A stretch of 64,000 bases of DNA from Acetobacteraceae bacterium (lineage in GTDB: Bacteria; Pseudomonadota; Alphaproteobacteria; Acetobacterales; Acetobacteraceae): the NCBI GenBank assembly GCA_965217935.1, contig OZ244581.1, positions 3,257,970-3,321,969 of the forward strand. Direction: 5' to 3'. The notes under the pieces are model-generated. The model was not told the origin of the DNA. It searched no databases and saw nothing but the letters and a program-made list of their open reading frames with translations. Numbering within the stretch: position 1 is the stretch's first letter; every line of letters begins with the position of its first letter. Both the position numbers and the translations under genes were made by a program. Below are positions 7,457 to 9,234 of the stretch, piece by piece.

Positions 7457-8335
7457 TTACCAACTGAGTGCTCCTGGGGGACGAGCCATTAATGAGTTAT
7501 GCTTAAAATTCAAATGAAGGCGGCCACTTTCATCGTATGCGCTGACTTCCACTTCCAGCGGTTTAAGATCGTGTCGCGGATGCAATCGGAAGACGATCTT
7601 ATCGCTTCCAATGTAGACTCGTTCAACAAACGCATAGTCCTTCTGGAAAACTTTGAGGTCATCCGAAACACGAATGTATTTGTCCCACCACTGCCTCCGG
7701 TCCTCAAGAGCGTGCATAAGTGTGGCTCGTTCAGCTACGGACCGGCAGTATATCCATCGCAAACAGTTATGAATGTTCAAAGGAGACGGCGCTAGGACCT
7801 CCGCACAACGATGGGATACGATCATACGATCTCCACCAATTCCGCCTTCATGATAGACCTTCTCAAATGGAATTTTCTCGAAATCCTCCACCTCAGACAT
7901 CTCGATCGCTCCTGTCTGCATGTTGGAATTTGAGAAACAAACGCCATCTAATAAGAGCACTCGACGCGCATCGAATACAAACATGACAAGTATGGGAGCG
8001 TGAACGCTGTTGCCGTATTTACCTTCGCCACTCTTGCGTATTCCCTCCACATTGTATTGAGTCGGCGTTCTCGGTCGGAAATACAGTCTTGCAAAAGGAT
8101 GAGCTCGGAAGCTGTTCGCAACGACGTCTGGTGCAGCGATGTCGTCTGCACGAACAGAATTTGAGTGAGCGCGTGACAGGAGTGAGCCGGAGGTAAGAAT
8201 GCGTACGGCATTATCGAGAGACGCATGATGGAACAAGTGTCTCGGCCAGTTCTTTCGATAGGGGTACGCTGCTAGGCTGAGTTGCCGCTCCCATTTCTCA
8301 ATATGCGCGTCGAGGAATGCAGCGTTTAGGCCCAT
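7457..8335 (-). CDS. darT: DarT-like DUF4433 ADP-ribosyltransferase with N- and C-terminal extensions
   Basis: 'HLFHHASLDNAVRILTSGSLLSR', 'FARLYFRPRTPTQY', 'CFSNSNMQTG' and 'HRCAEVLAPSPL' match the DUF4433/DarT motif order (H-x-T/S, Y-F-x-x-R-x-P, F-S-x-x-N, A-E-x-L). About 114 residues follow the AEVL motif. AT-rich gene. Its ATG overlaps the darG-like stop by 10 nt. Confidence 0.7.
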   Translation of the reverse strand: MGLNAAFLDAHIEKWERQLSLAAYPYRKNWPRHLFHHASLDNAVRILTSGSLLSRAHSNSVRADDIAAPDVVANSFRAHPFARLYFRPRTPTQYNVEGIRKSGEGKYGNSVHAPILVMFVFDARRVLLLDGVCFSNSNMQTGAIEMSEVEDFEKIPFEKVYHEGGIGGDRMIVSHRCAEVLAPSPLNIHNCLRWIYCRSVAERATLMHALEDRRQWWDKYIRVSDDLKVFQKDYAFVERVYIGSDKIVFRLHPRHDLKPLEVEVSAYDESGRLHLNFKHNSLMARPPGALSW

Positions 8336-9234
8336 GCGAGTTGAGATTGGTCTCCACGTTCCGATACAATCGGAGTGGGTGTAGCGGAAGTCAGAAGCTC
8401 AATCGCGAGTTCTGGTTTCCCAGACGAGCCTTCAATTTCGATGACTCGCGTTTTGGGAAGAATACTTATCAAAGAGAGCATGGCGTTTCCGTGCTCAATC
8501 CTGGTCCAACCTGCCTGAGCAGTAGTCAGGAGGCCGTTATGCAGACTCAGCCATATGCCTCGAAGATCGTCCTTTTCAAGAATCCGTGTTCCTGTGCTTG
8601 TGTGCAAGCTCAGATTCCAATTAGTGTCCATATGAGCGCGAAACGGAAAACCAGTCTTAAGCTCGACCAAGTTTTCTGTCGCTAACTCAGAAGCGCGTTT
8701 GAGTGCAGACAAAAAGTCAATGAAGGTAGTCATTAGAACTCCCTCGGCACGGAGAAGACGTGAAATCTGCTCAGAATGCTCCGGAATGCCAATATTAATT
8801 TCGTAATCATGGATGTAAACGGGGATGTCAATATCCCCTAAATACTGTTCCATCAAGGGCTTAACATCATTCCAGTCGAGATTACCGTTTCCACACCCAA
8901 GACGAGGGAACGAGATGTCTGTTATCCCGCGATCTTTGTACTGAGAAACGAATTTCGCCAACCCGGCCTCAATCCACTCTAGCTTTGATGGATGGCGCCA
9001 ATGCTTTTTCGTTGGGAAATTTAAAATCCAATGCTCTTCACCTTGCCACAGCCAAAGTTTTCCTAGCTGTAGAAGATTACGATCGCAAATGCTCTTATAA
9101 GCCTTGAACATGCGGGGATCACGCTCTTTGAAGGATTTGGCCAGGCCCTTGCCCATTATTCCGACACAATTTACCGTATTGACAAGGGTCTGTGATGTTG
9201 ACTCCAGAAGGCTTGTGCGGCGGTAGATTACCAT
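8326..9234 (-). CDS. darG: DarG-like macrodomain protein (ADP-ribosyl glycohydrolase) with C-terminal domain
   Basis: The N-terminus aligns from residue 1 with DarG macrodomains as I recall them: 'LVNTVNCVGIMGKGLAKSFK', 'NFPTKKHWRHPSKLEWIEAGL', 'FPRLGCGNGNLDW'. A non-macro domain of ~150 aa follows. AGGA lies 9 nt upstream of the ATG. Confidence 0.8.
   Translation of the reverse strand: MVIYRRTSLLESTSQTLVNTVNCVGIMGKGLAKSFKERDPRMFKAYKSICDRNLLQLGKLWLWQGEEHWILNFPTKKHWRHPSKLEWIEAGLAKFVSQYKDRGITDISFPRLGCGNGNLDWNDVKPLMEQYLGDIDIPVYIHDYEINIGIPEHSEQISRLLRAEGVLMTTFIDFLSALKRASELATENLVELKTGFPFRAHMDTNWNLSLHTSTGTRILEKDDLRGIWLSLHNGLLTTAQAGWTRIEHGNAMLSLISILPKTRVIEIEGSSGKPELAIELLTSATPTPIVSERGDQSQLAWA

Follow-up and report, generated by a model that had tools for sequence, protein, structure and literature searches.

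To our knowledge, DarTG belongs to a small number of systems in which ADP-ribose is attached reversibly to DNA bases, and so far two DarTG specificities have been worked out, one for thymine and one for guanine. In DarTG2, for which the systems of Thermus, M. tuberculosis and EPEC served as the named examples for comparison, the catalytic glutamate of the toxin DarT is E160 (PMC5179494), and the NAD+ site includes H13, N19, H65 and Y71 (PMC9967889); three further residues act on the substrates: R51 polarises NAD+ and takes the N3 proton from thymine, H119 holds the thymine locked in place, and the oxocarbenium ion is stabilised by M78. Residue roles in the DarG macrodomain, including that of the catalytic lysine, have also been described, and W83 has been proposed to stack on thymine (PMC5179494). 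In DarTG1, the guanine ADP-ribosyltransferase DarT1 is paired with a NADAR antitoxin that reverses the modification (PMC11543638), and DarHTG of E. coli consists of a DarT, a UvrD-like helicase and an ARH-type antitoxin, DarG3 (PMC13069673). Literature searches for DarTG3, DarT3 and DarG3 returned only the ARH-type DarG3 of DarHTG, which is unrelated in architecture to the module considered here, and a search on DUF4433 returned no description of a variant with the macrodomain gene first and an extended toxin; a named DarTG subtype with this order and extension was therefore not found in the literature searched.

The module lies in a window, the whole stretch of DNA that was analysed, of 64,000 nucleotides from an Acetobacteraceae bacterium (GCA_965217935.1, contig OZ244581.1, positions 3,257,970 to 3,321,969). 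The preliminary description read it as a divergent DarTG-like module with the antitoxin first and an extended toxin, and that core reading stands on profiles, fold and gene order (78 of 80 related loci, below); however, the toxin is truncated, the pair is not a one-off, and its order is unusual with respect to DarTG only. The reading that we favour as likely is a self-contained, horizontally acquired toxin/antitoxin-type module of a DarTG2-related clade, in which the window toxin has been crippled beside an intact antitoxin. The features are as follows, in window coordinates.

7323..9400, no strand: AT-rich island (composition profile)
8326..9234, minus strand: antitoxin-type gene, 302 aa, with a DarG-like macrodomain and a family-specific C-terminal domain (ORF)
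8800..9234, minus strand: macrodomain of TARG1/DarG type, residues 1 to ~145 (phmmer, Foldseek, hhalign)
9007..9009, minus strand: codon of the macrodomain catalytic lysine K76 (K76 = Taq K80)
8329..8787, minus strand: predicted alpha/beta C-terminal domain of the antitoxin, residues 150-302 (AF2, hhalign, profile search)
8326..8335, minus strand: 10-nt gene overlap, ATGGGCCTAA, with the toxin start codon inside the antitoxin W-A-stop
7457..8335, minus strand: DarT-like ADP-ribosyltransferase gene in its present form, 292 aa up to a premature TAA (ORF)
8243..8335, minus strand: N-terminal extension of the toxin, residues 1-31, two predicted helices absent from canonical DarT (AF2, hhalign)
7697..8242, minus strand: ADP-ribosyltransferase core, residues 32-213 (Foldseek, hhalign)
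7799..7801, minus strand: codon of the catalytic glutamate E179, aligned with Thermus E160
7460..7672, minus strand: retained part of a predicted C-terminal Ig/FN3-like beta-sandwich, residues ~222-292 (AF2, Foldseek, profile search)
7457..7459, minus strand: premature stop codon TAA, directly after W292 (homologue alignment)
7355..7456, minus strand: untranslated toxin remnant, the last 33 codons and the original stop, encoding the last two Ig-like beta-strands

The two minus-strand genes, whose AT-rich composition and 10-nt overlap had been correctly described from the outset, are the only ones in a 2-kb island with a GC content of 0.38-0.53, against at least 0.70 in its flanks, namely pyrF (6600..7322) on one side and a GC-rich stretch upstream of purH on the other. 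The module in the window was probably acquired horizontally; searches around the island for features that would mark how it inserted detected no tRNA, no integrase and no direct repeats at its flanks. Scanning the operon for promoters and terminators gave nothing convincing. The stop and start codons overlapping in ATGGGCCTAA would couple translation of the toxin to that of the antitoxin.

Profile searches and structural modelling place the core of the 292-aa protein with the DarT2-like ADP-ribosyltransferases. All motifs of the DUF4433/DarT series reported for it are present, and Pfam DarT (PF14487, DUF4433) was matched above the cutoff (6.6e-13; 49.3 bits against 22.5) across residues 35-213 and model positions 1-186 of 201; a PADLOC DarT profile matched at 3.8e-10, and the score against the NCBIfam DarT equivalog NF048013 was below its cutoff (21.1 bits against 150). 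An AF2 model built on P0002, a 60%-identical homologue (pLDDT 91), had Thermus and M. tuberculosis DarT as its best fold matches; Foldseek ranked Thermus DarT 7omy first (E 2.4e-10, TM 0.75 on the target), with 7yk3 at E 3e-7, and DarT2 structures preceded all others, with no DarT1 structure among the matches. Against a canonical DarT2 profile (hhalign, probability 95.5%, E 1.5e-8), the toxin residues H36, N42, H79, Y85 and E179 paired with H13, N19, H65, Y71 and E160 of Thermus DarT, and HRCAEVLA was set against KKQAEFLV, such that the glutamate of the AEVL motif stands opposite the catalytic one. This glutamate could be placed only with the 7-sequence canonical profile: hhalign with single canonical DarT sequences aligned the N-terminal half and nothing further, a single-sequence phmmer search of the PDB gave no DarT match, and the family profile gave a weak N-terminal match there (E 0.0017). 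Across an alignment of 91 near-full-length homologues (A2), from which shorter alleles such as the IS-truncated P0056 were left out, position 179 is glutamate in 90, and H36, N42, H79 and Y85 are invariant or nearly so.

The N-terminal part of the 302-aa protein is, by sequence comparison, a DarG-type macrodomain that has kept the catalytic lysine. Its alignment with DarG macrodomains from residue 1, noted early on, was recovered by phmmer (7e-36 against the M. tuberculosis DarG macrodomain and 1e-33 against that of T. aquaticus), and it matched Pfam Macro (3.4e-15) and PADLOC DarG (1.9e-59 over residues 1-187); the NCBIfam DarG equivalog NF048014 was matched below its cutoff (183.8 bits against 250) and over model positions 5-150 of 338. 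The AF2 model (pLDDT 82.6) was closest to the DarG macrodomains 5m3e/5m3i (Foldseek TM 0.85, 39-42% identity), and N22, K29, K76 and H78 are invariant among 82 homologues, with W79 conserved in at least 90% of them. No NADAR domain was matched in this protein with Pfam or NCBIfam. The hhalign comparison with canonical DarG (probability 100, 43% identity) covered residues 1-136 alone, leaving outside it the extra C-terminal domain of about 150 aa that had been proposed, here residues 150-302, which showed no similarity to the DarT-binding C-terminal domain of canonical DarG by hhalign and had no Pfam or PDB sequence match. An iterated profile detected this domain at 81 of 83 loci, each time in the upstream gene, and in no other ORF. 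Macrodomains were the sole real Foldseek matches of the whole antitoxin model; matches to the SPX-domain entries 5iit and 7d3y were rejected as a sign of similarity to its C-terminal domain, as the alignment covers roughly the length of a macrodomain, and these SPX constructs presumably carry a macrodomain as crystallisation carrier (the title of 5iit reads ‘carrier-driven’). Because the C-terminal domain is unlike the toxin-binding domain of DarG, its role is drawn by analogy with that system, in which case it probably binds and blocks the toxin.

Both additions to the DarT core that had been noticed in the toxin are real. The roughly 30 extra N-terminal residues form helices 5-19 and 25-32 in the P0002 model, and the hhalign match to canonical DarT begins at residue 32. 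At the other end, the 114 or so residues counted after AEVL are indeed additional, but the count was taken from a truncated frame, and the intact family has about 147. In the model they contribute seven strands within residues 235-321, and Foldseek matched them to FN3 and to the Ig-like domains of GH2 enzymes, which points to an Ig-like beta-sandwich restricted to this toxin family: a separate search with the domain gave no Pfam or PDB sequence match, and the matches of its profile were essentially confined to the C-terminus of these toxins. S100-A9, FliC and RedAm were rejected as relatives of either C-terminal domain, that of the toxin or that of the antitoxin, their matches (E >0.1) being attributable to chance, and a BFVD search of viral folds gave weak matches and no two-domain equivalent.

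When 7355..8335 is translated, the 292 residues are followed by TAA and then by 33 in-frame codons, IKANFKPGVYYVLLKVDKHLGYSSALKIDDLPF and the original stop, that align with the C-termini of homologues, and tblastn of P0002 passes through the window stop across residues 1-326. Where the window has the TAA, the residue in homologues is R, I, L, Y or Q, preceded by the invariant W292; the homologues are 325-330 aa long (~326), and 110 of the best 120 toxin homologues listed have 315-343 aa. Aligned in this way, the window toxin is truncated, the nonsense codon having cost it its last 34 residues. That the ORF is not the full gene is a point absent from the preliminary description. Of the seven Ig-like strands in the P0002 model, the two and a half at the C-terminal end are lost beyond the stop, and loss of beta-sandwich strands normally prevents folding. 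As a consequence of the truncation this copy is probably defective, the toxin most likely being crippled beside an intact antitoxin.

That the 292-aa protein is still a functional toxin, its last 34 residues being dispensable or their loss altering regulation, appears rather unlikely. The catalytic core (residues 32-213) and catalytic residues are intact, as is the conserved antitoxin; C-terminal truncations recur in the family, and in a Rhizobium strain an IS element interrupts the gene after the corresponding Trp codon, which leaves a 293-aa protein. Recurrent truncation, however, is equally how toxin decay would appear, and two of ~10 disruptions falling at one codon are not improbable (rough estimate, 0.1-0.15), while the missing strands were confidently predicted and the narrow length range of 110 of the best 120 homologues listed also speaks against a dispensable tail. 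Since the sequence of the window is known from a single assembly, the stop could instead be a sequencing or assembly error in an intact 326-aa toxin gene, the more so as the 33 downstream codons remain in frame and homologous and the close relatives stem from metagenome assemblies. Such an error is nevertheless improbable: the TAA is a substitution-type difference, not the homopolymer indel that is the typical long-read error, alleles with nonsense codons or insertions occur commonly in the toxin family, and the tail departs from the homologues at conserved positions, with Gly for an Ala present in at least 90% of them and Lys where the E-G-H consensus has Gly. Programmed read-through of the TAA was rejected, given that the other 90 of the 91 A2 sequences have a sense codon there and that the sole other truncation at that codon is the IS insertion. 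A crippled toxin remains the preferred reading of the window copy.

The toxin is encoded, at confirmed loci, in at least 168 species-representative genomes that are patchily distributed across phyla and include Rhizobium, Agrobacterium, Bradyrhizobium, Sphingomonads, Caulobacter, Chloroflexota and Latescibacterota; by sequence, the window pair thus belongs to a widespread family, whose members already bear the NCBI names ‘DarT family protein’ and ‘macro domain-containing protein’, and is not a unique oddity. In the survey of gene order that had been called for, 78 of the 80 loci examined had the macrodomain gene immediately upstream and in the same orientation, usually overlapping the toxin gene by 10 or 4 nt (an ATGG..CT.A junction in 31 loci and an ATGA-type overlap of 4 nt in 28). 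Of 11 contexts examined, about half were in a prophage, island or plasmid, among them prophages, integrative islands and a Ti plasmid, where the pair lies beside TIR and Phd/VapC genes; some copies are solitary AT-rich inserts, and about one third of the contexts had no defence or mobile neighbours. The pair was rejected as mainly a phage or plasmid gene: tblastn gave no match among 50,697 phage genomes, and two full-length and one partial match among 72,556 plasmids. Nonsense mutations, frameshifts or insertions disrupt the toxin gene in ~10 loci, and the macrodomain gene is disrupted or missing in ~2, an asymmetry that the pairing of a toxin with an antidote would predict.

This record also bears on whether the two proteins might form a housekeeping cycle, one writing and the other erasing ADP-ribose to control host growth or DNA metabolism, with no toxin/antitoxin or defence role. 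Several copies stand by themselves with metabolic genes around them, away from mobile or defence neighbours, and M. tuberculosis DarTG has been credited with a growth-regulatory role (PMC12170906). We regard such a cycle as very unlikely in view of the patchy distribution across phyla, the foreign composition of the window island, the copies in prophages, islands and a plasmid, and the frequent decay of the transferase where the eraser is kept.

The residues that handle the base depart from those of DarT2. By hhalign, Thermus H119 stands opposite N138, part of an N-M-Q motif that does not vary, and M78 opposite T92, both invariant in the 91 homologues of A2; at position 75, the equivalent of R51, the window toxin has Ser and 70 of the 91 have Arg, which in the window toxin and 14 others is found at position 77 and in ten at neither. 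With H119 and M78 replaced and R51 variable, the substrate may differ from thymine. One alternative to a thymidine-directed toxin is accordingly that the architecture is as described and the transferase targets another base, RNA or protein, with the macrodomain reversing that linkage, which we hold to be a tentative possibility, on the doubtful side. A change of base specificity within the DarT fold has a precedent in DarT1 (PMC11543638), and TARG1-type macrodomains accept several linkages (PMC9967889), which add to the family-wide substitutions; on the other side, the macrodomain is very close to DarG, with the equivalents of K80 and H82 invariant and that of W83, the proposed thymine-stacking residue, present in at least 90% of homologues, and the best fold matches of the toxin are thymidine-specific DarT2 enzymes. 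A further step, to a third functional DarTG type, would be speculative and seems to us doubtful. Such a type would combine the remodelled base site (the invariant N-M-Q for H119, T for M78 and a mobile Arg) and a target other than thymidine in single-stranded DNA with a new mechanism of sensing or release formed by both C-terminal domains; if this were true, the Ig-like and antitoxin C-terminal domains might recognise, for example, a phage protein, and the recurrent C-terminal truncations, that of the window included, would mark the domain as indispensable for activation.

Returning to the favoured reading, of a toxin/antitoxin-type module with a crippled toxin in the window, the intact downstream gene would encode a toxin of ~326 aa composed of N-terminal helices, an NAD+-dependent DarT2-like core and a C-terminal Ig-like domain, which would ADP-ribosylate a base of nucleic acid, single-stranded DNA being the most likely target. 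The product of the upstream gene, a putative DarG-type macrodomain hydrolase, would take the modification off, probably also holding the toxin through its C-terminal domain, and analogy with DarTG suggests that the module may ensure its own maintenance or act against phages by abortive infection. The clade is DarTG2-related and uncharacterised. Like DarTG2, it has two overlapping co-directional genes, a toxin with the DarT fold, the catalytic Glu and the NAD+-site His/Asn/His/Tyr, and a partner that begins with a DarG/TARG1-type macrodomain retaining the catalytic Lys. It differs in being macro-first (78 of 80, whereas canonical plasmid loci are DUF4433-first in five of five), in a toxin of 326 aa, against ~210-220 in canonical systems, with the N-terminal extension and Ig-like domain, in an antitoxin C-terminal domain unrelated to that of DarG, in the replaced H119 and M78 and variable R51, and in scores below the NCBIfam equivalog cutoffs for both proteins (21 against 150 and 184 against 250 bits). 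With DarTG1 it shares the pairing of a DarT-family transferase with an enzyme that reverses the modification, although that enzyme is a macrodomain and not NADAR; it is, like DarHTG, a non-canonical DarTG variant, but has two genes and a macrodomain, whereas in DarHTG a helicase gene comes as the third and the antitoxin has the ARH fold. Type II toxin/antitoxin pairs usually have the antitoxin gene in front, so the order of the module is unusual relative to DarTG alone, and the module further resembles type II pairs in its overlapping coding regions, small mobile format and frequent toxin decay; it differs from them in that the antitoxin, as in DarTG, would be an enzyme that reverses the product of the toxin.

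Because its toxin is truncated, the window copy is of limited value, and further work is better directed at intact relatives, for instance P0002 with P0123. The clade as a whole keeps the catalytic machinery yet alters the base-handling residues, adds an Ig-like domain to the toxin, swaps the toxin-binding domain of the antitoxin and inverts the operon, and could thereby reveal a new specificity of nucleic-acid ADP-ribosylation or a new mode of holding and releasing a toxin.

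The module lies on the minus strand, and the features of the locus are as follows:

7457..8335, minus strand, DarT-like (toxin) gene, open reading frame of 292 aa
8326..9234, minus strand, macro (antitoxin-type) gene, open reading frame of 302 aa
6600..7322, pyrF-like gene, on one side of the AT-rich island
10232..11836, purH, beyond the GC-rich region on the other side of the island

Both open reading frames were present where the preliminary description had placed them, every motif quoted there was found, and the reported overlap was recovered as ATGGGCCTAA, common to the macro gene stop and the toxin gene start in the window sequence. 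The genes are AT-rich, as had been noted; a composition profile placed both in an island of ∼2 kb with a GC content of 0.38–0.53, versus at least 0.70 in the genome, between the pyrF-like gene and the GC-rich region 5′ of purH. A search of the window for a tRNA, an integrase, or a flanking repeat associated with the island found none. The stretch between the island and purH (9400–10230) has a GC content of 0.78–0.81 and contains degenerate C-rich direct repeats, with long open reading frames in several frames on both strands.

The antitoxin matched Pfam Macro (3.4e-15) and, over residues 1–187, PADLOC DarG (1.9e-59); with NCBIfam DarG the match was limited to the N-terminal 150 positions and, at 183.8 bits, did not reach the equivalog cutoff of 250. 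The proposed alignment from residue 1 with DarG macrodomains was reproduced with solved structures from M. tuberculosis (7e-36) and T. aquaticus (1e-33), and these macrodomains were also the nearest structures to the AlphaFold model of the antitoxin (pLDDT 82.6; TM 0.85, 39–42% identity). Residues important by mutagenesis in T. aquaticus DarG, namely N22, K29, K80, and G119 (PMC5179494), have equivalents in N22, K29, K76, and a GCGNG loop that are invariant in 82 homologues. The additional C-terminal domain of ∼150 aa corresponded to residues 150–302, a separate alpha/beta domain with no match in Pfam or PDB. When its profile was compared with that of canonical DarG, alignment was limited to residues 1–136 (probability 100, 43% identity), and the C-terminal domain gave no alignment with the DarT-binding C-terminal domain of DarG.

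As with Macro for its partner, the DarT/DUF4433 assignment of the toxin held in profile searches: Pfam DarT (PF14487) was matched at 49.3 bits, above the gathering score of 22.5, and PADLOC DarT at 3.8e-10; the NCBIfam DarT equivalog scored 21 bits, far under its cutoff of 150, and single-sequence comparison with solved structures gave no DarT match. The fold was modelled, from 91 sequences, for P0002, a full-length homologue that is 60% identical (pLDDT 91, pTM 0.90). The top PDB match of this model was Thermus sp. 2.9 DarT (E 2.4e-10, TM 0.75 on target), accompanied by M. tuberculosis DarT and a Thermosipho DarTG fusion; next-ranked, over residues ∼222–326, were FN3 domains and the Ig-like domains found in GH2 glycosidases. 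This Ig-like domain could be an antitoxin docking site, a phage-product sensor, or a substrate-positioning element. A canonical DarT profile, built from five DarT of plasmid DarTG loci plus the Thermus and M. tuberculosis sequences, aligned with the toxin-family profile over residues 32–213 (probability 95.5%, E 1.5e-8). The suspected Glu of the AEVL motif, E179, paired with the catalytic E160 (HRCAEVLA with KKQAEFLV), and H36, N42, H79, and Y85 paired with the NAD+-site residues H13, N19, H65, and Y71 of DarT (PMC9967889); all five are invariant or nearly so across 91 homologues. Since these residues are kept, the toxin-family enzyme very probably has ADP-ribosyltransferase activity and belongs to the DarT lineage. 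Three positions linked to thymine chemistry in DarT2 (H119, M78, R51) differ in the toxin, so that its substrate is not inferable from DarT2: in the 91 homologues the first is an invariant N138 inside an invariant N-M-Q motif and the second an invariant T92, and the third is Arg in 70 of 91 and Ser in the window toxin, with Arg two residues further on.

Scanning bacterial and archaeal genomes, one per species, yielded 168 confirmed family loci, 80 of which were retrieved. They occur in Rhizobiales, Acetobacteraceae, Sphingomonadales, Caulobacterales, and Rhodobacterales, and also in Burkholderiales, Chloroflexota, Latescibacterota, Myxococcota, and others. The antitoxin-first order seen in the window proved general, with the macro gene immediately upstream on the same strand in 78/80 loci; the overlap was 4 nt in 28 loci and 10 nt in 31, the latter all sharing the window's ATGG..CT.A junction. 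An iterated profile found the antitoxin C-terminal domain in the upstream gene of 81/83 loci and in no other open reading frame of the 83. Searched against 1.84 billion representative proteins, the Ig-like domain profile matched essentially only the C-terminus of ∼325-aa proteins or their fragments, with weak matches to repeats of giant surface-type proteins. The two-domain antitoxin and three-part toxin thus make up an old, coherent unit.

No member of the family occurred in 50,697 isolated phage genomes, and plasmids had almost none. The module lies in surroundings characteristic of mobile modules: prophages or integrative islands (L092, L094, L101, L102, and L097, a viral contig), a Ti plasmid copy adjoining TIR, NTPase, and Phd/VapC genes, and solitary inserts amid metabolic genes (the window, L003, L090, L103). 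SRAP-domain proteins react with abasic sites in ssDNA, and SRAP-domain genes (PF02586) lay a few kb from the module in two of 11 annotated contexts (L001:3731-4456, L101:12263-12976), by chance or in a tie to DNA-lesion processing, as may be.

The 292-aa open reading frame had been taken as the whole toxin gene, which proved mistaken. Homologues measured 315–343 aa in 110 of the best 120 listed, and translation of 7355..8335 gave 292 residues and a TAA, after which the frame stays open for 33 codons up to another stop; the 33 residues past the TAA (IKANFKPGVYYVLLKVDKHLGYSSALKIDDLPF) aligned with homologue C-termini (e.g., RARAKLKPGAYRIIIELDGHRAYDAVLRLDETPF), and tblastn of P0002 read across it over residues 1–326. 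In a 91-member alignment restricted to near-full-length toxin homologues, window included, the codon after the invariant W292 was sense in all 90 other sequences (Arg in 51, Ile in 23; Arg, Gln, or Tyr in the closest relatives), which identifies the TAA, by comparison, as a nonsense mutation. According to the structure model it deletes the final two and a half of seven Ig-like sandwich strands, and should thus keep that domain from folding. The TAA may instead be an assembly error, the sequence being known from one assembly only; most likely, the window copy combines a crippled toxin with a persisting antitoxin.

Besides the window, in-frame stops interrupted the toxin gene in L026, L032, and L061, a frameshift in L020, and insertions in L005, L029, and L068. 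An IS3-type element (L001:6870-8160) with terminal inverted repeats TGACCTTGCCCC...GGGGCAAGGTCA splits the toxin gene of Rhizobium sp. KDH_Rht_773_N (CM129525.1), and the remaining tail of the gene resumes beyond the element. A Rhizobium binae plasmid (NZ_CP071607.1, 361996-364571) keeps the macro gene beside an unannotated toxin remnant (residues 27–140), and L044:4567-5861 has been reduced to a truncated toxin and the 144-aa C-terminal domain of the antitoxin. Among retrieved loci the macro gene was damaged or missing in only ∼2, versus ∼10 toxin gene disruptions, an asymmetry expected of a harmful downstream product and a protective upstream one. The L001 insertion directly follows the Trp codon, the codon position of the window nonsense mutation; no meaning was attached to this shared site, since the chance of two among ∼10 disruptions at one codon, roughly estimated at 0.1–0.15, makes coincidence not improbable.

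The closest known system is DarTG2, which shares with the module the fold, catalytic Glu, NAD+ site, and DarG-type macrodomain, but differs in that the module has a reversed operon order, a toxin longer by two additions and with the H119 and M78 positions replaced, and an antitoxin C-terminal domain unrelated to that of DarG. All five canonical DarTG loci retrieved had DUF4433 (212–218 aa) first and macro (∼350–360 aa) second. Antitoxin-first order is the norm in type II toxin/antitoxin pairs. Both module proteins also fall under the NCBIfam equivalog thresholds. The macrodomain antitoxin sets the module apart from DarTG1, with its NADAR antitoxin, and from DarHTG/DarG3, with an ARH antitoxin plus helicase. 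The papers searched, an incomplete set, dealt with DarTG1, DarTG2, and DarG3 only, and none described a clade with macro-first order and an Ig-like domain. Family members already carry the database labels 'DarT family protein' and 'macro domain-containing protein', and PADLOC models match both proteins.

Canonical DarTG pairs, reportedly found within type I restriction-modification operons in the original DarTG paper, lay inside such operons, between hsdS and hsdR, in E. coli pSTEC1012_1 (L084:1-6486) and a Meiothermus plasmid (L089:1-5555), a placement seen in none of the module-family loci. A toxin-first fused architecture, distinct from both canonical DarTG and the module family, was observed in IMG/VR viral contigs (L098:2381-5468; L099 and L100:4524-9720), where a segment with weak similarity to DarT (phmmer 1e-9 to 1e-11) lies within giant open reading frames (793 and 1494 aa) and a ∼250-aa macro protein, related to the window macro at ∼1e-50, is encoded downstream.

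The interest is greater in the family than in the window's truncated copy. The sequences and models show the domain identities, the conservation of catalytic residues in both enzymes, the gene order and overlap throughout the family, and the truncation in the window; by analogy with DarTG, the transferase would spend NAD+ to ADP-ribosylate a nucleic-acid base, arresting growth, and the macrodomain would take off the adduct, with the toxin additionally held by the antitoxin's own C-terminal domain. The stop/start overlap would allow the toxin to be made only once the antitoxin has been translated, and the module would stabilise itself or abort phage infection.
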